The notes: generated by a model not told the origin, from the sequence alone. Counted from the stretch's first letter, positions 7,825-18,595 are shown. The stretch: DNA of 64,000 bases from Bacillota bacterium (GCA_015059285.1 SVAS01000001.1:327291-391290); one strand, 5' to 3'. Numbers and translations: made by a program.

Positions 7825-8310
7825 ATGGCAAAAATGCCTAAAAGAAGAAAAAATAAGGATAATCCTTATACTCTAGAATACATAGAAGATAAAAACATTT
7901 ATAAAGTTAATTTTAAAGATAACAAAGGAAAATTAAATACGTTAGAAATAAGTGCTGATGTATATAAAGCAATGGATAAATTTGAACTAGAAGACATATC
8001 TCAAATGCATCAATTTGAGCGTCATATAGAACATTCTGAACTATTTGAAGGAACATTAAATGAAAGAGCTGTGGACAAGCCTCTTGCAGTAGAAGAAATA
8101 GTTGAAAATACTATTATAAATGAAGAACTTATAAGGGCAATTGGTGGTTTATCGGAAGTACAAAAAAGAAGAATAAAGTTATATTATTTTGAAGGTTTAA
8201 CACAAAAAGAAATCGCTAATAGAGAAGGAACTTCTTTGAGGGCAGTACAATATACTTTAAATAGCGCAATTAATAAATTGAAAGAAATTCTAAAAAATTT
8301 GCAAATTTGA
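7825..8310 (+). CDS. Sigma-70 region-4-only transcriptional regulator, phage ArpU/RinA-like or TcdR-like late/toxin-gene activator
   Basis: C-terminal HTH LSEVQKRRIKLYYFEGLTQKEIANREGTSLRAVQYTLNSAINKLKE is sigma region 4-like. No region 2 recognisable. Start trimmed to MAKMPKRR after GGAGG. Confidence 0.6.
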   Translation: MAKMPKRRKNKDNPYTLEYIEDKNIYKVNFKDNKGKLNTLEISADVYKAMDKFELEDISQMHQFERHIEHSELFEGTLNERAVDKPLAVEEIVENTIINEELIRAIGGLSEVQKRRIKLYYFEGLTQKEIANREGTSLRAVQYTLNSAINKLKEILKNLQI

Positions 8311-8337
8311 CTTCGTAAAATTGCTTTTGAGTGGGGA

Positions 8338-8374
8338 AACAGGTGAAAGGATAGATTGTATCCTTTCACCTGTT
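8338..8374 (+). terminator. Very strong 14-bp perfect hairpin (AACAGGTGAAAGGA-tagattgta-TCCTTTCACCTGTT) with a weak U-tract; terminator or RNA-processing/regulatory stem-loop
   Basis: Perfect inverted repeat 27 nt after the regulator stop; the downstream T-run is poor (CTTTGAAAA). Confidence 0.5.
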
Positions 8375-8687
8375 CTTTGAAAATTGAATAATGATAATTG
8401 AATACATAATGCTTCTTTTAAGCACGTTAGTAAGTTCGCTTGCGACTAATACTTGACTATGAATGCTAACAGATTATTAGCAATGCAATGATGAAGAAGT
8501 GTGATAATGATACTTCCACCTAGCGACAGTCTCAAACAATCGGAGTGGTTCTGATAAATACAGAAAGGTGAAATCCCTATGGTGCTGACATATCATCAGC
8601 CATTCAATTATCATGTGTAATAAAATTTTAGAAGAATTGCTAAATATTAGACTAAAACATAAAAAATATAGAAAGGTCGTGTAACGT

Positions 8688-9287
8688 ATGAACGAAACAG
8701 AACAAACTACAACTAATACAGGAGATTTTACTTTAGAAGATATTTATTTTAAAGATGCATTTACCCAAACTGAGGATAAATTAAATTTAGAAGTTGATAA
8801 TGCAAATATTAGTTGTTTAACTTCAAAAAACAATAAATTTAGTCTAGATGAGGATGGAAATTTAATTGTTAATAGCATCACATGCAGTCAAAGTGGGGAA
8901 ACAAGTGAAAGTTTGGATTTTAATCAAATATATCCAATTGGGTCAATTTACTTATCGGTAAACGATAGCAACCCTTCAATTTTATTTGGTGGTATTTGGG
9001 AACAACTTAAAGATCGTTTTTTGTTGGGTGCGGGAGATAATTATGCTAATACTTCTACTGGTGGTGAAGCATCTCATATTTTAAGTGTGTCAGAAATGCC
9101 GGCTCATAATCATAGAATTGGTTATGACCAAATATGGGGATATGGTGGTACTGCAAGTATTGCTTTAACTTCTGGTGGACCTTATTATGTGAGTTCAACA
9201 AATTATATTGGAAACACTGGCGGAAATCAAGCACATAACAATATGCCGCCTTATTTAACCGTATACATGTGGAAAAGAGTTAGTTAA
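8688..9287 (+). CDS. Phage tail-collar domain protein (tail-fiber-like, receptor-binding-type module)
   Basis: YPIGSIYLSVNDSNP..FGGIWEQLKDRFLLGAG....GGEASHILSVSEMPAHNH....GGNQAHNNMPPY matches the Collar domain consensus (G.W..L..RFLLG...GGE..H.L...EMP.H.H). Confidence 0.75.
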   Translation: MNETEQTTTNTGDFTLEDIYFKDAFTQTEDKLNLEVDNANISCLTSKNNKFSLDEDGNLIVNSITCSQSGETSESLDFNQIYPIGSIYLSVNDSNPSILFGGIWEQLKDRFLLGAGDNYANTSTGGEASHILSVSEMPAHNHRIGYDQIWGYGGTASIALTSGGPYYVSSTNYIGNTGGNQAHNNMPPYLTVYMWKRVS

Positions 9288-9336
9288 TTAATATATTACA
9301 ATTCTTCTAAAATGTATAATTTAAAGGAGAAATTTT

Positions 9337-12300
9337 ATGAAAGAAATAGAATTAAAAGAGTTAAGAAAAAAAAGAGAGAAACATTTTCTACAGGAAAATG
9401 GTAATATCGTAGCAAAAATATATGATGATGATGTACATTTTTTTAAAGATGGAAAATATGAAGAAATTGACAACACAATAATAATCAAAGATAATTACTA
9501 TACCAATAAGAGTAATGATTATAATGTATATTTTGGTAATGATAGTTATTTGATGAGAATGGAAAAAGATGATTGTTTTCTTAAATTTAAATTAGAAAAT
9601 GGTAATCATGATATAGTAAAAAAAGAAAACGGAAATGTTTGCTATGAAAATATATTAGATAACGTAGATATAAAATATTTTATTAAGTCTAATAAAGTTA
9701 AAGAAGATATTATTATTAAAAACAAAGAGGCAAACATTAAAAAAGTAAGTTTTATTATTGAAACCAACTTATCTTTATATGTGGTTAATAATAAAATTAA
9801 TGCGTTTAAAAATGATGATATTATTTTTGTTTTAGATGCTCCTTTCATGTATGATGCTAATGGTAACATAAATAAAAATATTTATTATGAATTAAAAAAA
9901 ACAGACAATCTTTATAAATTAGATTTGACATTAGATGAAAAATGGTTAACCCAAGCTGCTTATCCAGTTATAATTGACCCTACTATTACTGAGTATAGTG
10001 AAAATGATAGTGTAGTTGACACTTATATTTATCCTGGGGATACTGGTGTTGATAGAAATAGTCAGGACATTTTAAAAGCTGGTGTTGAAAGAATAAATGG
10101 CGTAGATAGAATTAATAGGACTCTATTAAGGTTTAACTTGCCGGAAATTGGAACCGGTAGCCAAATTATTAAAGCAGAATTGAGATTAATTGGTTACCCA
10201 CATATAGGAGAAACTTCTGAAAGTGATATCGTAAACATTCATAGTCTTACAACAGAATGGGAAGAAGATGAAGCTAATTGGGAAAATATGAATGATAAAT
10301 TTAATCCTAGATTAGAAGGTTCTTTCTATAGTGCCAGAAGTGTTAGAATGACATTAGAAGATGTTACTCCAAGAGAATGTACAGAAGATATAACAAATTT
10401 AGTAAAGAAGTGGTATTCAAGTAAAGAAAATTATGGAATAATGCTAAAAATGAATACAGAAGTGTATAGAAGTGACGTTATTCCAGCATTTTTTTCAAAA
10501 AACAATTCAGTATCTAATTATAATCCTAAACCACTTTTAGCAATTACATATAGAAACCAGAATGGTTTGGAAGATTATATGAATTATAAGAAACAAGCAT
10601 TTAGTAATGGAATGTCATATGTTAATACTTACAATGGAAATTTAACTACAATTTTTGATGTTGGTGCAACTATTGGTGGGATTAATCCGGTTAATTTAAG
10701 TTTAGTCTATAATACTAACGATGTTGTGTTGGAAAATAATTTAGGTGATGGTTTAGGATATAGATTTAATTTTAATCAAACGATAAAGCTCTTACCAATA
10801 GAAGAAGTTGAATATTTAGAATATATTGATGGTGATGGAACAATTCATTATTTTTACGAAACTGATGGAATCTACAAAGACGAAGATAACTTAAATATGA
10901 TTATAACTAAAGTTAATAATGAATACATTTTAGCGGATAAGAATGATAATAGAATGAAATTTGCAATTATCAATGAAGTTGGCTATTTAACTGAATTAGA
11001 AAATTTGAACCATGATAAAATTCAAATATTATATAATTCTAATAATCAAATAATAAAGATAATAGATCCAAATCTAGAAGAAATAAATATTTCAAGAGAA
11101 ACAAATAAAACAATCATTAGTAGTCCTGGAAAAACAGCTAATTTGATTTATAACGGAAATAAGCTCATATCTATACAAACTATTTTAGGTAATACAACAA
11201 TTACATATAATGATAAAAATATTATAGAAAGTATAACAGATGAGAATAATCAAAAATTGGCATATCAATATTATGAACAACAACCTTATCGTATGAAGAC
11301 AGTGACCGAATATGGCTTAAACAACGAAATGGGTAATTATTTTACTTTAGAATATAATTTTAATTCAACAACTATAGTTGATAATAAAGATAGAGCAAAT
11401 ACAATGACTTTTAATAATTTTGGAAATGCTGTTTCTATTACAACCTTAAAATCTAAAGAAGATGTAAAAGAAGCGTATGGGAAAAGGCTAATTTATGGTA
11501 GTAGTTATATAACTTCAGAAGGAGAGTATGCGCCTTATAAAAACAAACTACTTAACGAAGAAGTTTTTAATAAATGTATCAAAAATCACTTTCCTAACTC
11601 TAACTTTGAGGAAGATGACTTTGTATTTACCCCATGCGCGAACAATATTTTATACATTGTTGATGACGAATACTTAGAAGGTCCAAAATCTTTAGCGTTT
11701 ATAACTAAAGATTATAATCAATATATAACAAAAACAATATCTGTCCCTAAAGGAAAATATTACACATTTAGTTTTAATTTAATCAACCACATGTCTTTTA
11801 CAATATCACTTTCATATAAGGATGCCAATGATTATACTGTTAGCGAACGAACTTATGTTGACTATATAAATTTAGAATTTGAAAAACAGGAAGTAAGCAT
11901 TTTCTATCCTGAAGATGCAAAATCAGATTTAACAATAATGATTTCCGCTTATGAAATGGGGACATCCTATATAAATTCTATTCAATTAGAAGAAGGTGAT
12001 GTTGCTAATAGTTATAATTACATTTCTAATTCAGATTTTTCAAATGGTCTTAGTGACTGGGAATTAAGAGCACAAATTAATGATCAAGGGGACTATGTTA
12101 ATGCTGATGATAAATTTGAAGTAGTTACATTAGACAATGGATTAAATGCACTTAAAGTCAAGATGAATCCACTATATTCTACTGGTTTTTCAAAAACGTT
12201 TAAAGTTAGAGGTAAACCTGGTGATATTTTTACAATTGCTTTTTGGTATAAACATCAAGGATATAAAGGTTCGGATTACGCACAAGCGCCGAGACATAAT

Positions 12301-15300
12301 AACGTTATTATTAGATTTAACTATATTGACCAAAGTTATGGACATTGTATATCACCAAGTAGTTCATTTAATCCGAATGAAAATGAATGGCAATATTTTT
12401 CTGCCGATTTCGTAGCAGAAAAAGAATTTGATTCACTATATTTATCATTTTCACAAGGTTTTAATGGCAATGATTTTTATATAACTAATTTAAGTTTAGT
12501 TAAAGATAGTGGTAGTGTTAGTTTTAATTATGATGAAAAAGGAAATATAATTGGAAAGAGCGGTTTAAATAACGAATTAAGCGAATTTAATTATGATAAG
12601 AATAATCAATTAATAAAAATGACTGATTCCATGGGAAACAATCACACGTTTGAATATGATAAAGATGTTAGTGATAGAGTTATAAATGGCATATCTGCAA
12701 CTGGCATATCTAATAAAATAAAATATAATAGCGATGGAAATCCAATTGTTACAAAAATAGTTAATCATGGTAAAAATGAAGAAATATTATCCGGATTTTA
12801 TAAAGTTAAAGCAAAAGGTGCTAATAAATATATAAAAAACAATTATAACGTTTTAATATTAAAAGAAACTAATTGTAATCATCATTTATGGTTGCTTGAA
12901 AAAGTTGATGAAAACTATAGGATAAAACATTCTTTATTAAATAAATATATAAATATTTTGAATAATACGTTAATATTATCAGAAGAATATGCATTATTCA
13001 GTTTAATAAAAAATCAATGTAATAGTTTTTTGATCAAAGAAATAGAAAGTGGTAACTACATTAAAAACAATAATGATGTATTGGAAATTACTTCTTTGAT
13101 TGAAGATGATGATAGTTTTGAATTTTATTTTGAAAATGGAAACGAACTATTTATAGAAAACAACGCTGAATATACATCGGATAAAAGATTTATTAAAGAG
13201 ACTACGGATACTTTATTACATAAAACAGAATATGAAGTTGATGAGGGGACTGGATTAATTAAATCCGTAATAAATCCTAAAGGACAATTAACAACTTATG
13301 AATACAACGATAAACAACAATTATCAAAAATAATCACTAATGCAAAAACTATTGATTATGTTTATAATAGTAACAATTTGTTGGATAAGATAGTAGAAGG
13401 TAACAAAAGCTACCAATTTCAATATGATAATTTCTTAAATGTTAATCAAATTAAAATTGGCGATAATATTACCTTAATAACCAATAATTATGCACCAAAT
13501 AATGGAAATTTAATTAATTCAGTATATGGAAATAATGATATTGTTAGTTATGAATATGATGATTTTGATAGAGTCAGCAAAATATTTAGAATGAATGATA
13601 CCTATAATTATAAATATGATAATAATGGTAATGTTGCAAAAGTTTTTGGCAATGTAGACAAATGGAAATATTTCTATGATTCTGCCAAAAGACTGAATGA
13701 ATATAGATTAAATAATTTTAAAATAAAATATTTTTATGATAAAAATGATAACCTATATAGAAAAACTTATTGGCTTGATGACACAAATATCAACATTTGG
13801 AATAATGTACCTAGCTCAAGAATAGCTATTTATGGTATAGAGCAAATCAACGAATTTAATGATGATGACTGTATTACAAAAACGACAATAGGAAATGTTT
13901 CTCTTGATTATGATTATGATTATTTAGGTAGATTAACAAGCAGAAGTATAAATAATAATTATAAAACAGATTATCAATATGTAACTAATGGCAAAAGAAC
14001 ATCACTATTAGTAAAAAGTATTAAAAACAATAATGATTTATATAATTACAGATATGATAAATTAAATAATATCACTCACGTATATTACAACAATAGTCTT
14101 ATAAATAGGTATTATTATGATGAGTATAATGAACTTATTAAAGAAAACAATTATGTAACTAATGAAACAACAGAATATACTTATGATAACTATGGAAACA
14201 TATTAAATAAAAAAGTATATGCATTAAATACTAATAACTTATTAAGTCAAGACACTTATGAATATAATAATTCTAATTGGGTTGACCAATTAACTAGATT
14301 TAATAATGAAACTATCGTGTATGATGAAATAGGAAACCCACTTGCTATTGGTTCAAAAACATTATCATGGATAAACGGAAGACAATTGAGTGGTTATAAT
14401 GACTCAACAATTAATGCTAACTACAGATACGATAAAGATGGATATAGGATAAGTAAAATTGTAAATAATCAAGAAACAAAATATTACCTTGAAAATAATA
14501 AAATAATACTTGAAATTAAAGGTGATGATATTATATACTATATGTATAATGAAGTTGATGACATAATAGGATTTAAATATAATAATGATGTATATTATTA
14601 TATAAAAAATGTTAAAAATGATATAATTGGTATATTAGATAGCAGTCATACTCAAGTCGTAAAATATAATTATGATTCTTGGGGCAATATTATATCAATA
14701 ACAGATAATAATAATAATGACATAAGTAATACTTTAAATCATATAGGCAATATTAATCCATTTAGATATAGAAGTTATTATTATGATTCGGAAACAAATT
14801 TTTATTATTTAAACTCAAGATATTACAATCCTGTTTGGGGTAGATTTTTGAATGCTGATGGCATTGTTAATGATGGAGAAATTATAGGCTGCAATTTGTT
14901 CGCTTATTGTAATAATAATCCTATAAATTTAGTTGACCCTACTGGAGAGCTTGCACTTGCAGGCACTATAGGCGGAGTTTTGGGTGTGGTTGCAATTGTT
15001 GGTTCTATTTATTATGCAAGCAAAAGTCTGATAAAAAGTGCCACAAGTATTCCGAATGTAATATATGATACTAAAACAAAAATAGAAAATGCTATTGGTT
15101 CCATAGAGATTAACAAAACAGAAACTAAAACACAAACGCCTGCAATATCCGTTCCTAAAATAGAAAGTATTGACTTGGGCACACCTAAGTATAAACCTTG
15201 TACTGAGGCATGGCTATCTAATGGCGACGTGGCAAGAGGAAATAGATTAACAATTGATGAATCATATATCCATGTAAGCAATGGTCATGATGTAATGTGT

Positions 15301-15456
15301 GACAATCAGTTTTCTGCACATCAAGTAGCACAAAGATTTGTTGGTTATATTGGTCCGGAAATAGACAAAAAACAATTGCCTGGCAATAAGTATTATTGTC
15401 ACTATCATCCGGATAGAACGTCGCATAGACATATTTGGTTCTATTCAATGCAATAA
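9337..15456 (+). CDS. RHS/YD-repeat polymorphic toxin, 2039 aa. No signal peptide. N-terminal DNRLRE-like domain, about 30 YD repeats, RHS core ending at a DPTGE autoprocessing motif, then a C-terminal TM helix and a toxin tip of unknown family.
   Basis: Repeated YxYDxxGN/R motifs (e.g. YDEIGNPLAIGSKTLSWINGRQLSGY...YRYDKDGYRISKI). RHS core signature YYNPVWGRFLNADGIV...NPINLVDPTGE. C-terminal 170 aa comprise LALAGTIGGVLGVVAIVGSIYY... through ...YYCHYHPDRTSHRHIWF. Confidence 0.9.
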   Translation: MKEIELKELRKKREKHFLQENGNIVAKIYDDDVHFFKDGKYEEIDNTIIIKDNYYTNKSNDYNVYFGNDSYLMRMEKDDCFLKFKLENGNHDIVKKENGNVCYENILDNVDIKYFIKSNKVKEDIIIKNKEANIKKVSFIIETNLSLYVVNNKINAFKNDDIIFVLDAPFMYDANGNINKNIYYELKKTDNLYKLDLTLDEKWLTQAAYPVIIDPTITEYSENDSVVDTYIYPGDTGVDRNSQDILKAGVERINGVDRINRTLLRFNLPEIGTGSQIIKAELRLIGYPHIGETSESDIVNIHSLTTEWEEDEANWENMNDKFNPRLEGSFYSARSVRMTLEDVTPRECTEDITNLVKKWYSSKENYGIMLKMNTEVYRSDVIPAFFSKNNSVSNYNPKPLLAITYRNQNGLEDYMNYKKQAFSNGMSYVNTYNGNLTTIFDVGATIGGINPVNLSLVYNTNDVVLENNLGDGLGYRFNFNQTIKLLPIEEVEYLEYIDGDGTIHYFYETDGIYKDEDNLNMIITKVNNEYILADKNDNRMKFAIINEVGYLTELENLNHDKIQILYNSNNQIIKIIDPNLEEINISRETNKTIISSPGKTANLIYNGNKLISIQTILGNTTITYNDKNIIESITDENNQKLAYQYYEQQPYRMKTVTEYGLNNEMGNYFTLEYNFNSTTIVDNKDRANTMTFNNFGNAVSITTLKSKEDVKEAYGKRLIYGSSYITSEGEYAPYKNKLLNEEVFNKCIKNHFPNSNFEEDDFVFTPCANNILYIVDDEYLEGPKSLAFITKDYNQYITKTISVPKGKYYTFSFNLINHMSFTISLSYKDANDYTVSERTYVDYINLEFEKQEVSIFYPEDAKSDLTIMISAYEMGTSYINSIQLEEGDVANSYNYISNSDFSNGLSDWELRAQINDQGDYVNADDKFEVVTLDNGLNALKVKMNPLYSTGFSKTFKVRGKPGDIFTIAFWYKHQGYKGSDYAQAPRHNNVIIRFNYIDQSYGHCISPSSSFNPNENEWQYFSADFVAEKEFDSLYLSFSQGFNGNDFYITNLSLVKDSGSVSFNYDEKGNIIGKSGLNNELSEFNYDKNNQLIKMTDSMGNNHTFEYDKDVSDRVINGISATGISNKIKYNSDGNPIVTKIVNHGKNEEILSGFYKVKAKGANKYIKNNYNVLILKETNCNHHLWLLEKVDENYRIKHSLLNKYINILNNTLILSEEYALFSLIKNQCNSFLIKEIESGNYIKNNNDVLEITSLIEDDDSFEFYFENGNELFIENNAEYTSDKRFIKETTDTLLHKTEYEVDEGTGLIKSVINPKGQLTTYEYNDKQQLSKIITNAKTIDYVYNSNNLLDKIVEGNKSYQFQYDNFLNVNQIKIGDNITLITNNYAPNNGNLINSVYGNNDIVSYEYDDFDRVSKIFRMNDTYNYKYDNNGNVAKVFGNVDKWKYFYDSAKRLNEYRLNNFKIKYFYDKNDNLYRKTYWLDDTNINIWNNVPSSRIAIYGIEQINEFNDDDCITKTTIGNVSLDYDYDYLGRLTSRSINNNYKTDYQYVTNGKRTSLLVKSIKNNNDLYNYRYDKLNNITHVYYNNSLINRYYYDEYNELIKENNYVTNETTEYTYDNYGNILNKKVYALNTNNLLSQDTYEYNNSNWVDQLTRFNNETIVYDEIGNPLAIGSKTLSWINGRQLSGYNDSTINANYRYDKDGYRISKIVNNQETKYYLENNKIILEIKGDDIIYYMYNEVDDIIGFKYNNDVYYYIKNVKNDIIGILDSSHTQVVKYNYDSWGNIISITDNNNNDISNTLNHIGNINPFRYRSYYYDSETNFYYLNSRYYNPVWGRFLNADGIVNDGEIIGCNLFAYCNNNPINLVDPTGELALAGTIGGVLGVVAIVGSIYYASKSLIKSATSIPNVIYDTKTKIENAIGSIEINKTETKTQTPAISVPKIESIDLGTPKYKPCTEAWLSNGDVARGNRLTIDESYIHVSNGHDVMCDNQFSAHQVAQRFVGYIGPEIDKKQLPGNKYYCHYHPDRTSHRHIWFYSMQ

Positions 15457-15482
15457 TTAAAATAGAAATTGGGGGAATTTAT

Positions 15483-16238
15483 ATGTATATAAACAAGGTA
15501 ACTACTGAGGTTTATAAAAAGATACTTGATTATAAGTTAGAAAAGTGCAATTATGCATCTTTGACTGTATATACAGATCAACATTTAGATGAACATCTAG
15601 ATATTATTAATATTATTACATCCAATCCTAAATACTCTAAACAATATATTTTATCTAATTATTCAGAAATACTGTTAGGACAAATTTATAATGATTTTAA
15701 GAATGATAAAAGAATATATAATGTTAAGGAACATGTAAGAAAAATAAAAAAAAGTTCTTTTAGAAAATGTGAATCTAATGATGAATTGGAAAACTTTCTA
15801 TATCAGCATGAATCTGAAAATAGAAAATCATCTATATTTAGCGCCATACAAAGCTTTGTTTATAATAATTTTACAACCCAATTTATTGAAGAATATAGGA
15901 GTAAAATTGTAAAAATAAAGGATGAATTATATGAGCATGAACTCACACCATTCCATAAAAAAGAAGCGTTTTATAAAAAAGAATATATATTTCAGCTTGA
16001 TGATGAATTAAAACAAATTATACATAACACTTATTTATATGACTGGAGTTTTCCAATGAAATTAGAAGATTTAAGCTTGTTTGTTGAAAATTATTTGTGG
16101 ATATATTCAGTTACACATGAAGAACTATGCTATATTTATTGTGAAACAGAGGAAGAATATAATTATTTAAAATCAATGGGTGTTGAGTTCTATGAAGAAC
16201 ACTTTATTCCACAAGAAAAGCAAGAAATCGTTTTTTAA
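15483..16238 (+). CDS. Putative cognate immunity protein for the RHS C-terminal toxin (cytoplasmic, 251 aa)
   Basis: Sits immediately downstream; the long ORF's ATG at 15435 overlaps the RHS stop. The likely true start, ATG at 15483, follows RBS GGGGGA. No TM or signal peptide. The toxin-then-immunity order is typical. Confidence 0.6.
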   Translation: MYINKVTTEVYKKILDYKLEKCNYASLTVYTDQHLDEHLDIINIITSNPKYSKQYILSNYSEILLGQIYNDFKNDKRIYNVKEHVRKIKKSSFRKCESNDELENFLYQHESENRKSSIFSAIQSFVYNNFTTQFIEEYRSKIVKIKDELYEHELTPFHKKEAFYKKEYIFQLDDELKQIIHNTYLYDWSFPMKLEDLSLFVENYLWIYSVTHEELCYIYCETEEEYNYLKSMGVEFYEEHFIPQEKQEIVF

Positions 16239-16253
16239 TAAAATAAAACAAAA

Positions 16254-16283
16254 AACAATCAAATTAAATTTGATTGTTTTTTG
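16254..16283 (+). terminator. Rho-independent terminator (AACAATCAAAT-TAA-ATTTGATTGTT plus T-run) separating the toxin-immunity unit from the lysis cassette
   Basis: 11-bp perfect inverted repeat followed by TTTTT. Confidence 0.6.
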
Positions 16284-16466
16284 TATATAGGATATGATAT
16301 TTGAAATCAAATATAACACACAATATATTCTATAGTTTATGATGGATTTGATGGTATGATAATGATTAAATAAAAATTTATGCAGTAATATAATAGTAAA
16401 CATTTTAAAAGGACACAATCTTAAACTTGATTAAGTCTTTTTATTTTTATTATGGAGGTGATATAT

Positions 16467-16772
16467 ATGATAGAAATAATATGTAGATATTGGCTAGAAA
16501 TATTATTAACTACTATCACAAGCGGTTTTATATATGTTATCAAAGAACATATAGGATTAAAAAATGGAGTGAAAGCTTTACTTAGAAATGAGATAGTTAG
16601 AATATATGAAACGTATTCTAAATTAGGATATTGTCCAAGTTATATGAAAGAAAATGCAAATGAAATTTATATTAATTATCATAGATTAGAAAAAAATGGT
16701 ATGATAACATCTATGCTAGAAGAAATAAATAAATTACCTGTTGAGATAAAAGTGGAGGTTATAAATGCATAA
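16467..16772 (+). CDS. Small N-terminally membrane-anchored protein, holin-associated (phage lysis-module accessory protein)
   Basis: Start trimmed to MIEIICRYW.. (ATG at 16467 after GGAGGTG). One N-terminal TM segment. Its stop overlaps the holin start. Confidence 0.45.
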   Translation: MIEIICRYWLEILLTTITSGFIYVIKEHIGLKNGVKALLRNEIVRIYETYSKLGYCPSYMKENANEIYINYHRLEKNGMITSMLEEINKLPVEIKVEVINA

Positions 16773-16995
16773 AATTTTAAACGACAAGTATGTAAGTAAA
16801 ATTATAAAAACATTTATTGAAGGTTTTCTTGCATCTTTAATTGTAAGTTTTCAGACCATAGAAAATTTATCTGATTTGAATTTAATTAAAACAGTATTAG
16901 TTGGTGCAATTGCTATGGGGATTTCAGCTGTACTAAACTTATTTCAAATGTATTTAAATAAAGAGAAAGTTGAATATGGAAAAAGCAATACTTAA
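16765..16995 (+). CDS. Phage holin, phi-LC3/LL-H-like family
   Basis: 76 aa. SKIIKTFIEGFLASLIVSF fits the ..KTF.Q.F.A.L motif of this holin family. Two hydrophobic segments and a charged C-terminus (NKEKVEYGKSNT). Confidence 0.65.
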   Translation: MHKILNDKYVSKIIKTFIEGFLASLIVSFQTIENLSDLNLIKTVLVGAIAMGISAVLNLFQMYLNKEKVEYGKSNT

Positions 16996-17782
16996 TTTAG
17001 ATATATTAAATATAAGTCAAGGAATGAATGATAGCTTTTCCCATCCAGGTAATTTAGCAATAGATGTAACAGGTTGTTCTTATTTAAAAGCCCCATTTAC
17101 AGGTGTTATAAAAAAGATTTATTCAGAGTGCAATGCTGTTTGGCTAGAAAGTGTAGAAAAGGTAGAGTATGCAGATGGAACTATAGATTATATGACAATT
17201 ATGACAATGCATGATAATGATATATCAGATCTTTATGTTGGTAAATTAATAAAACAAGGAGATATATTTTATCAACAAGGAATGAAAGGTTACGCAACAG
17301 GACCACATATTCAGATTTCAGTAGGAAAAGGTAAATTTAGTGGTTCGGGTTGGTATGAAAATAAACAAGGTTCTTGGTGCATTAATAATCAATATGATAT
17401 AACTAGGGCACTATTTTTACACACCGATGTTAGAATAATTTATAGTATGTATAATTGGAAAATAACTGTTTATTCAAAACTTGTTAATAAAAATAAGTCT
17501 ATTGATGAAATGGCTAATGAAGTTATTCAAGGTAAATGGGGAAATAATCCTGAAAGAAAACAAAGATTAATTCAAGCTGGATATGATTATACAGCTATAC
17601 AAAATAGAGTTAATGAGTTATTAAGTACTTCATCTGAAATAATACATACAGTAGAAAAAGGCGAATATTTAATCAAAATAGCTGCAAAGTATAACAAGAA
17701 TTGGCGTAAAATTGCAAGCGATAATAATATAAAATCTCCGTGGATAATATATCCAGGGCAAAAGTTAATAATATATAAATAG
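16976..17782 (+). CDS. Endolysin: N-terminal M23 metallopeptidase domain, CW_7 (Cpl-7) cell-wall-binding repeat, C-terminal LysM
   Basis: M23 HxxxD/H.H-type motifs (SFSHPGNLAIDVTG; GPHIQISV). CW_7 repeat DEMANEVIQGKWGNNPERKQRLIQAGYDYTAIQ. LysM HTVEKGEYLIKIAAKYNKNWRKIASDNN...YPGQKLII. The ORF-track start is a TTG at 16970; the ATG at 16976 with RBS AAGAGAAAG is preferred. Confidence 0.8.
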   Translation: MEKAILNLDILNISQGMNDSFSHPGNLAIDVTGCSYLKAPFTGVIKKIYSECNAVWLESVEKVEYADGTIDYMTIMTMHDNDISDLYVGKLIKQGDIFYQQGMKGYATGPHIQISVGKGKFSGSGWYENKQGSWCINNQYDITRALFLHTDVRIIYSMYNWKITVYSKLVNKNKSIDEMANEVIQGKWGNNPERKQRLIQAGYDYTAIQNRVNELLSTSSEIIHTVEKGEYLIKIAAKYNKNWRKIASDNNIKSPWIIYPGQKLIIYK

Positions 17783-17819: not shown

Positions 17820-17896
17820 ATTTGGTAAATTTCACGTTTTTTTCTTGACTAAATAGTTTTTTTAATATAAACTTATTTAGGATGCTAGGTGATGAT

Positions 17897-18595
17897 ATGA
17901 AAAAAATATTAATATTAATTACACTAATGATTGTTACTTTATTTAGTTTTTTTTCATTTAAAGATAAAAATAAAATTGAAGCAAAAGAAGAAAATCTTTG
18001 TATAAAAGATTGTATGTCTGGTGATAAAATTAGACTAAAAGATGGTAGTTACTGGCATATAATTACAACTTCTTCTGAAAAAACAATTTTATTTAGTGAT
18101 GCAAATATTGATTTAGAAGGTAATTATTTACCTGTAAATTATATGAGTTATGAAAATACTGGACAACCTGTAGCATTTGACACAATAAATGCTAGAACAA
18201 AAGAAAAAAATCCTTATTGTATTTATCCTGATTTAGGTTGTAGTGCTTATGAAAAAAATGCTAAAGATGTTTTAGAAGATAGTAATATTAAAAAAATAAT
18301 TGATGAAAATTTTGTTCCTAAAATTCAAGAATTATTTAAAACGGAAGATATAACAGTAAGACTTTTAAAAACAAAAGAATTTTGGTATTTACAAAGATTA
18401 GAAGTTATAAAAGAAGAAAAATTTTCTTGGTTATATCATAGTGCTTATTGGCTTATGGACGCGTATAGTCCTTATAGTGTATATTTATTAAAAGAAGGGG
18501 ATAAAAGTCTTTCTGTTTTAGCGCCTTATATTTTATATCAAGCTGGAATTAGACCGGTTATCGAACTTGATTCAAATCTTTTATTTGAAGCTTAA
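17897..18595 (+). CDS. Secreted/exported hypothetical protein (signal peptide) at the island edge
   Basis: MKKILILITLMIVTLFSFFSF signal-like N-terminus; no family recognised; start trimmed to the ATG at 17897. Confidence 0.5.
   Translation: MKKILILITLMIVTLFSFFSFKDKNKIEAKEENLCIKDCMSGDKIRLKDGSYWHIITTSSEKTILFSDANIDLEGNYLPVNYMSYENTGQPVAFDTINARTKEKNPYCIYPDLGCSAYEKNAKDVLEDSNIKKIIDENFVPKIQELFKTEDITVRLLKTKEFWYLQRLEVIKEEKFSWLYHSAYWLMDAYSPYSVYLLKEGDKSLSVLAPYILYQAGIRPVIELDSNLLFEA

Follow-up and report, generated by a model that had tools for sequence, protein, structure and literature searches.

The question raised by this locus is which kind of toxin is carried at the C-terminus of a large RHS protein, how such a toxin would reach its site of action in a target cell and by which protein the producer is protected. 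The locus is located in 64,000 nucleotides of genomic DNA of a Bacillota bacterium (GCA_015059285.1 SVAS01000001.1:327291-391290), a stretch that is referred to in its entirety as the window. In an initial annotation of this DNA an RHS gene with a toxin tip of unrecognised family, followed by an overlapping immunity gene, had been noted. The two genes are interpreted here as a polymorphic toxin cassette in which a hydrophobic helix would deliver or anchor a probable metalloenzyme toxin in the target cell and the immunity protein would block it; confidence in this reading as a whole is slightly better than even. The following features define the toxin gene.

9337..15456, + strand: RHS/YD-repeat polymorphic toxin gene, 2039 aa (open reading frame and family profiles)
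14911..14949, + strand: end of the RHS-associated core (NNNPINLVDPTGE), presumed autoproteolytic release site (end of the TIGR03696 match at residue 1870)
14950..15033, + strand: hydrophobic Gly/Ala-rich helix, residues 1872-1899, LALAGTIGGVLGVVAIVGSIYYASKSLI (hydropathy)
15034..15195, + strand: Lys/Thr/Glu-rich low-complexity linker, residues 1900-1953 (composition; K/T/S-rich equivalents in homologues)
15196..15453, + strand: toxin domain, residues ~1954-2039 (profile family, AlphaFold2 model, hhalign)
15400..15432, + strand: HYH...H cluster, candidate metal or catalytic site (invariance), with H2022 at 15400-15402, H2024 at 15406-15408 and H2032 at 15430-15432

Toxin tip and toxin domain family

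RHS repeats were detected in the 2039-aa protein by the Pfam scan (PF05593, 5.9e-16) and YD/RHS repeats by the NCBIfam scan (TIGR01643, 7.2e-09; NF041261, 2.7e-14). The RHS-associated core was assigned to residues 1779-1870 (TIGR03696, 8.3e-19) and terminates in VDPTGE. The same core-end motif is found ahead of the tips of homologues, and an autoproteolytic cut at the DPTGE motif would free the tip. The cargo past the core comprises 168 residues, namely the hydrophobic helix, the Lys/Thr-rich linker and a toxin domain of ~85 residues. RHS tips of other toxin types in related loci are non-homologous to the tip of the window. Moreover, the GC content of the tip is 34.5% versus 22-23% in the adjacent RHS core (window 14800-15400) and ~24% in the immunity gene, a jump that fits a horizontally exchanged toxin module. 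The assignment as an RHS C-terminal toxin tip is thus borne out by the repeat and core matches and by the exchangeable tip.

Searches with the single tip sequence gave no match in Pfam, NCBIfam, PHROGs or the PDB sequences. With a word-indexed protein search two relatives were found, both being C-terminal cassettes past an RHS-type core end. A family profile was built from these three sequences and searched against 1.84 billion representative proteins, by which 128 protein clusters were retrieved at E<=1e-3, 36 of these at E<=1e-10. Additional profile matches inside the RHS repeats (e.g. window 11194-11472) were rejected as weak secondary segments of the same open reading frame and are not toxin copies. 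The domain is always located at the extreme C-terminus, ending on the last residue in 43 of 90 complete hits and at most 14 residues before the end in the rest. An RHS core end is present upstream of it in 59 of 129 members, whereas 54 others, being fragments or orphan cassettes, lack the length needed to decide; the remaining members include at least five Sec-secreted proteins of ~280 aa. Those N-terminal parts of family members that could be scanned consist of RHS repeats. The RHS context holds most of the family, and the metagenome-assembled genomes of the carriers are those of uncultured low-GC Bacillota labelled Firmicutes, Tenericutes, Bacilli or Bacillales. The wider search proposed in the initial annotation was in this way productive, with most of the clusters found on RHS proteins.

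Conservation in the domain is centred on histidines. In the alignment of 58 sequences the sole invariant residues are H2022, H2024 and H2032 (58/58), whereas a fourth histidine, H2030, occurs in half of them (29 of 58). A1958 and A1994 show almost no variation, 50 of 58 sequences have C1988 and 42 of 51 have E2008, and T/S1972, E1975 and R/H1979 are common across the family. The cysteine of the 'KPCT' motif (C1955) is confined to a subfamily, most members having Y instead, and C2021 shows no conservation. Hence the His/Cys-rich C-terminus pointed out initially (...DVMCDNQFSAHQ...KYYCHYHPDRTSHRHIWFYSMQ) is present and its three histidines are invariant, but its cysteines are either partly conserved (C1988) or not conserved at all (C2021).

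No Pfam family is common to the 58 members, and the family profile gave nothing below E 0.1 against the PDB sequences. Furthermore, no profile match of the tip family to curated toxin families (HNH/EndoVII, BECR RNases, deaminases, ADP-ribosyltransferases, Ntox/Tox-*) was obtained in Pfam, NCBIfam or PHROGs. Among published candidates, PT1-PT9 (Nachmias et al.) were considered and rejected: no motif match was found in the supplement, and the solved PT1 and PT7 structures were absent from the results of both PDB searches. PT-TG was likewise rejected, as no Pfam PT-TG match lies within the tip. A literature search for motif strings (HYHPDR and others) returned nothing relevant.

A link to a described toxin system was obtained through a distant member of the family, a 287-aa Sec-secreted Paenibacillus protein (locus L015). 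This protein matches over its full length the product of a Bacillus cereus plasmid gene annotated as 'SAR2788 family putative toxin' (L021:5004-5786), which is located directly after an 'S8 family peptidase' gene and is followed by a 171-aa gene. The B. cereus toxin is composed of a signal peptide, an acidic beta-rich N-terminal domain, a long hydrophobic helix and a C-terminal end with the sequence ...IGPERDKGK..GYYFHFHIHNRTGGHSFY; in Sec-type family members NF038340 covers the N-terminal part. Alignment of the family profile with the C-terminus of the B. cereus toxin by hhalign gave 98.5% probability and E 1.9e-15 over 89 columns. The tip of the window is therefore homologous to an ABP toxin domain. 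Consequently, 'unrecognised family' holds for the curated collections, in which no match exists, but not for the literature, and the family is 128 clusters in size.

The ABP systems were described by Li et al. in 2022 as Gram-positive polymorphic toxins with a signal peptide and a 'BetaH' domain, encoded beside an S8 peptidase (PMC9424270). S8-VOC1 is one of their 16 toxin domains and was reported to consist of one VOC-like unit extended at the N-terminus, to carry four conserved sheet histidines and to be of unknown activity (PMC9424270). A 2026 review gives the activity of the VOC-like toxin domains as 'unknown' and regards these domains as apparently restricted to ABP systems (PMC13460014). 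The family identified here is very probably S8-VOC1, an assignment made by elimination via the published descriptions of the ABP domains: nucleases and Ntox33 would be recognised, S8-VOC2 conserves Arg-Ser-Lys-Lys, and the frataxin-like topology differs, so that only S8-VOC1 fits. Like S8-VOC1, the domain of the window is small, located at the C-terminus and preceded by a helix; its conserved histidines are predicted to lie on a beta-sheet, and it would consist of one VOC-like unit extended at the N-terminus. In contrast to the ABP systems, the carrier here is an RHS shell instead of a signal peptide and BetaH, and no S8 peptidase is found among the genes flanking the cassette of the window. 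Sec-type family members also occur on contigs without an S8 peptidase (P0168 loci), and not every Sec-type member is therefore demonstrably of the ABP type.

As a side observation, a Sec-secreted 290-aa member (L018:2172-3318; also in L019 and L020) is followed, with an overlap of ~22 nt, by a 98-aa open reading frame, and no S8 peptidase is present on its contig. Such loci may provide the toxin domain with yet another context and yet another immunity type, a third of each.

Immunity gene and immunity family

Directly downstream of the toxin gene the following features are located.

15471..15475, + strand: GGGGG ribosome-binding site, 7 nt before the immunity ATG (sequence)
15483..16238, + strand: cognate immunity gene, 251 aa, undescribed family (open reading frame, homologues)

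The start codon is the ATG at 15483, 26 nt past the RHS stop. This position is in agreement with the N-termini of homologues (MYVNK...) and with the gene call on identical metagenome contigs, which gives the same 251 aa. An ATG at 15435, a 22-nt overlap with the RHS gene and possible translational coupling had been suggested before. The codon at 15435 is, however, a TTG inside the RHS coding sequence and lacks a ribosome-binding site; with the real start at 15483 the genes do not overlap, and the coupling deduced from the overlap is not supported. Elsewhere the spacing between toxin and immunity genes varies, as they are 261 nt apart in L002, which likewise agrees with the start at 15483, and overlap by 4 nt in L014.

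The 251-aa protein contains no signal peptide, transmembrane (TM) segment or hydrophobic segment. Its isoelectric point (pI) is 5.3 overall and 4.2 in the C-terminal 80 aa, which have a net charge of -14. Homologues are encoded directly downstream of the two first relatives of the tip and of a fourth toxin variant in L001, and with a profile of these four immunity sequences 68 protein clusters were found. The family occurs in a long (~240-250 aa) and a short form (~182 aa), which have in common an N-terminal segment and a C-terminal core of ~80 residues. E213, E225, G233 and F236 are invariant, and W188, P191, E195, D196 and H212 nearly so. Neither a Pfam nor a PDB match was obtained for any member. 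A KIX match of the protein of the window (E 0.0024, 18.5 bits versus a cutoff of 27) was rejected as chance.

The assignment as immunity protein follows from its linkage to the toxin domain. Of the 14 distinct copies of the toxin domain in the loci fetched, 13 have a gene of this family next to them downstream, which starts 10-265 nt past the end of the domain match. This recurrence confirms the previous designation of the downstream 251-aa frame as the immunity gene. In the case of a distant RHS member (P0161, L016) the next gene encodes a 174-aa protein with the C-terminal core in common (98% probability). The exception is the ABP-type Paenibacillus toxin, whose 157-aa neighbour has its homologue in the 171-aa protein of B. 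cereus (E 6e-27), which is unrelated to the immunity family of the window. With two unrelated neighbour families, there are at least two immunity families for this one toxin family, and the immunity protein of the window differs from the ABP systems in belonging to the other, undescribed one.

Locus L001 contains two complete cassettes (L001:367-1020 and L001:5995-6600) with an identical helix and a near-identical linker and first half of the toxin domain. After ...DVMCDTQQ the two sequences diverge into two different His-bearing halves, GPEIDK...HPDRNSHRH versus YHDDPH...HPWDGRNHPH, and the cassettes have separate immunity genes, encoding 182 aa and 242 aa, respectively. This comparison places immunity specificity on the soluble domain and not on the helix. 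The switch point looks like a recombination breakpoint inside the toxin domain, as judged from the two sequences.

Immunity genes of this family were also observed without a complete toxin. Orphan genes, including tandem copies, are located in arrays past RHS genes with other tips (L005:7785-7991 and 8001-9371; L006:4174-4956 and 8001-9535). One orphan gene is preceded by a 68-aa toxin remnant starting within the domain (MTIEESYYHV...).

Predicted fold, hydrophobic helix and possible mode of action

An earlier AlphaFold2 run with 3 sequences (pLDDT 59.8) was unreliable and was replaced by a run on the 58-sequence alignment, which reached a pLDDT of 90.9 with all five models at >=88. The predicted topology of the toxin domain is beta-beta-alpha-beta-alpha-beta-beta-beta. 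The HxH motif is located on one predicted strand and H2032 at the start of the next, and C1988 and E2008 are on neighbouring predicted strands; judging by their positions on four strands or just ahead of them, C1988, E2008, H2022/H2024 and H2032 would cluster spatially. Foldseek with this model against the PDB gave nothing better than E 0.5. RelA/SpoT and nucleotidyltransferase matches were recurrent, but their probability was <0.15 and they were discarded. Since the structure searches gave no match, the fold has no close solved relative. The structure prediction and structural search that had been recommended initially have thus provided a confident model and no close relative in the PDB.

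A distant VOC-like relationship of the domain is possible, though weakly supported by the model. Compared with the VOC superfamily, the candidate ligands are conserved and one predicted beta-alpha-beta-beta-beta module is present, whereas VOC proteins contain two or more; neither sequence similarity nor a significant structural score linking the domain to the superfamily was found.

The hydrophobic helix that had been noticed at the start of the tip was confirmed at residues 1872-1899, with a best 19-residue Kyte-Doolittle mean (KD19) of 2.09. An equivalent hydrophobic segment is present in 61 of the 82 members with enough upstream sequence. A helix with KD19 >=1.9 precedes 11/11 distinct RHS tips of the family versus 3/11 tips of other types in the same loci (Fisher p = 0.001), and the Sec-secreted ABP-type members carry the helix too. 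A TM-like helix is therefore not unusual in this position, as had been supposed, but the rule within the family, and it is also found in some unrelated tips. Its sequence is poorly conserved across the family. In the window it shows small-xxx-small spacing (A1875/G1879/G1883).

Similar helices were observed before unrelated tips at L006:259, L006:2272 and L013:4791, one of these having an Ntox44 match on the called gene and one containing ...YHHIVEQ.... Because it also stands ahead of unrelated nuclease-like tips, the helix behaves as a delivery element and not as the toxic element. In Gram-positive RHS proteins of this kind, a helix ahead of the toxin may generally serve for delivery.

A parallel exists in AbpT, of which a 'helix + toxin' fragment kills from outside whereas the toxin alone does not, import being dependent on the proton-motive force (PMC12582261; PMC13460014). 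In both proteins the helix is immediately upstream of a toxin domain acting, or here thought to act, in the cytoplasm. The AbpT helix is amphipathic, cationic and unmasked by a protease, whereas that of the window is hydrophobic throughout and would become exposed on release from the RHS shell.

Autocleavage, metal binding, enzymatic activity, the role of the helix in entry and the site of action are what we infer from these results for the RHS-immunity cassette. Cut at the DPTGE motif, the tip would stay enclosed by the RHS shell. Once it is released, the helix would insert into the target membrane and carry or anchor the domain on the cytoplasmic side, in parallel with the AbpT fragment; it would not be the killing part. 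The toxin domain would be a small metal-dependent enzyme acting through its His cluster, built as a single VOC-like beta-alpha-beta-beta-beta unit, in the target cytoplasm or on the cytoplasmic face of the membrane. In the cytoplasm of the producer the soluble, acidic immunity protein would bind and block the toxin domain.

Several observations weigh against this scheme. Canonical VOC enzymes need two modules and the toxin domain has one. The counts for the helix are derived from related sequences and not from independent events. The helix of the window differs from the amphipathic ABP helix in being uniformly hydrophobic. The S8-VOC1 identity is based on descriptions and not on published S8-VOC1 sequences. 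Finally, the toxin domain has a pI of 6.75 (family median 8.15), whereas ABP toxin domains are very cationic with a mean pI of 10.2; as the domain is not cationic, import driven by the proton-motive force through positive charge was down-weighted.

Other modes of action have to be considered. The main rival, to which a modest chance is given, is nuclease activity of the soluble domain (as a DNase, RNase or tRNase), either metal-dependent via the His cluster or with His/Glu/Arg catalysis of the T1/barnase type, the helix serving for entry only. The majority of small polymorphic toxin domains that act in the cytoplasm are nucleases, most ABP domains among them (PMC13460014, Table 1), and the conserved polar set T/S1972, E1975, R/H1979, E2008, H2022, H2024 and H2032 suits both kinds of site. 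The strongly acidic immunity protein, with its net charge of -14 in the C-terminal 80 aa, is of a kind frequent among nuclease inhibitors. On the other hand, the domain is not basic, unlike typical nucleic-acid-binding toxins, no nuclease fold was detected, and Li et al. separate S8-VOC1, the probable counterpart, from the nucleases (PMC9424270).

It appears rather unlikely that the helix is a permanent membrane anchor for an enzyme acting on a membrane-bound small-molecule or lipid-linked substrate, with helix pairing possibly joining two VOC-like units. Such an arrangement would be in line with the small-molecule substrates of VOC enzymes and their need for paired modules, of which the toxin domain has one (PMC9424270), and with the coupling of the helix to this domain, which is stricter than to other tips (11/11 versus 3/11) and holds on two different carriers. 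However, no substrate can be inferred, and the coupling could reflect common descent of a helix+toxin module. A related proposal, made with considerable doubt, is that the HxH...H domain is a membrane-tethered, non-nuclease metalloenzyme with a toxic chemistry new to interbacterial toxins, directed at a lipid-linked precursor or a membrane-associated small molecule on the cytoplasmic face, the helix carrying the domain across the membrane and pairing the units.

A membrane-damaging tip, whose glycine-zipper-like helix would depolarise the membrane or oligomerise into a pore, with the C-terminal domain as an accessory for targeting or regulation, is improbable: although the helix is hydrophobic with small-xxx-small spacing and accompanies the domain in nearly every member, on RHS and Sec-secreted carriers alike, its sequence varies widely and invariance is limited to three histidines of the soluble domain, neither a TM segment nor a signal peptide is present in the immunity protein, where that of a pore-former is normally a membrane protein, the two L001 cassettes share an identical helix and differ in immunity protein and C-terminal half of the domain, and similar helices precede unrelated nuclease-like tips (L006:259, L013:4791). 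The initial suggestion of either a pore or an anchored metal enzyme has thus been narrowed, the pore being less likely in view of the soluble acidic immunity protein and the conserved soluble three-His domain, and the metal enzyme being kept as a proposal.

Gene neighbourhood and significance

The cassette is flanked by housekeeping genes, and the following further features were identified next to the toxin and immunity genes.

7825..8310, + strand: sigma-70/ECF-type sigma factor, upstream (family match; homologue in L014)
8688..9287, + strand: 199-aa protein with a phage tail-fibre/Gp10_C C-terminal domain, 49 nt upstream of the RHS gene (PF21939, 5.7e-22; tail PHROGs)
16248..16284, no strand: perfect 17-bp palindromic hairpin with A and T runs, 10 nt past the immunity stop (sequence)
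16467..17782, + strand: lysis-type cassette of a 101-aa single-TM protein (phrog_4105), a 76-aa holin-like protein and an endolysin-like protein (PHROGs, profiles)

The hairpin at 16248-16284 is likely, from its sequence, to be the terminator closing the RHS-immunity operon, and possibly a bidirectional one that parts the toxin operon from the lysis-type genes. In the lysis-type cassette the 76-aa protein (16765-16995) has two TM segments by eye and a weak match to phrog_443 (E 0.0022). The endolysin-like protein (16976-17782) contains an M23-like part, CW_7 (3.5e-18) and LysM (8.2e-12) and matches endolysin PHROGs.

The arrangement recurs in related loci. In L014:106-10721 the same order of RHS gene, immunity gene, 99-aa gene, 75-aa two-TM gene and M23-type lysin gene is found, with a sigma factor further along. 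A homologue of the 101-aa protein is encoded right after the immunity gene in L008, a Phage_holin_4_1 gene and a lysin gene are located beside the RHS array in L006 and L007, and a homologue of the Gp10_C-type protein is encoded upstream of the RHS gene in L011. Additionally, the gene after the endolysin-like one (window 17882-18595) encodes a protein of 237 aa that has no family match and whose N-terminal segment is signal- or lipoprotein-like; at the equivalent position in L014 an unrelated 257-aa secreted protein is found.

By analogy, this neighbourhood suggests a dedicated release of the signal-less RHS toxin of the holin/endolysin type, and the tail-fibre-like protein is perhaps a receptor-binding partner of the toxin. 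As in the C. difficile PaLoc (TcdR/TcdE/TcdL) and the type X secretion system of Yersinia Tc toxins (PMC10847048), a large signal-less toxin is accompanied by sigma factor, holin-like and endolysin-like genes. In difference to both, the cargo here is an antibacterial RHS toxin of uncultured low-GC Bacillota.

With the classical RHS/YD toxins (WapA, the Rhs effectors of type VI secretion systems, TcC of the Tc toxins) the protein of the window shares the repeats, the DPxG-type core end, the variable tip and the adjacent immunity gene, and orphan tip/immunity cassettes are likewise present in related loci. In contrast to these toxins, neither PAAR, LXG/WXG or VgrG-binding domains nor a signal peptide were found in it by the Pfam and NCBIfam scans; the only N-terminal domain detected is DNRLRE at residues 229-398, and its N-terminus (MKEIELKELRKK...) is not a signal peptide. 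A second difference from the classical toxins is the set of neighbours, which are a sigma factor, a tail-fibre-like protein and a cassette of the holin/endolysin type.

An RHS toxin-immunity cassette is not categorically new, and the toxin domain has very probably been noticed before as S8-VOC1, although without a curated model or structure. What appears to be new is the RHS context, the undescribed immunity family, the obligatory helix and the three-His signature.

The probable S8-VOC1 domain would not be unique to ABP systems but is mainly RHS cargo in uncultured low-GC Bacillota. Its chemistry can be approached through mutation of defined residues, co-crystallisation of toxin-immunity pairs and a second delivery context, and the system provides a test of whether a helix suffices to take a toxin across a Gram-positive membrane. 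If the domain were indeed a membrane-tethered metalloenzyme, RHS and ABP toxins would share a mobile 'helix + VOC-like toxin' module that is served by at least two unrelated immunity families. Moreover, signal-less RHS toxins of Gram-positive bacteria may be released via a dedicated sigma factor and a holin/endolysin, like the large clostridial toxins and the Tc toxins.

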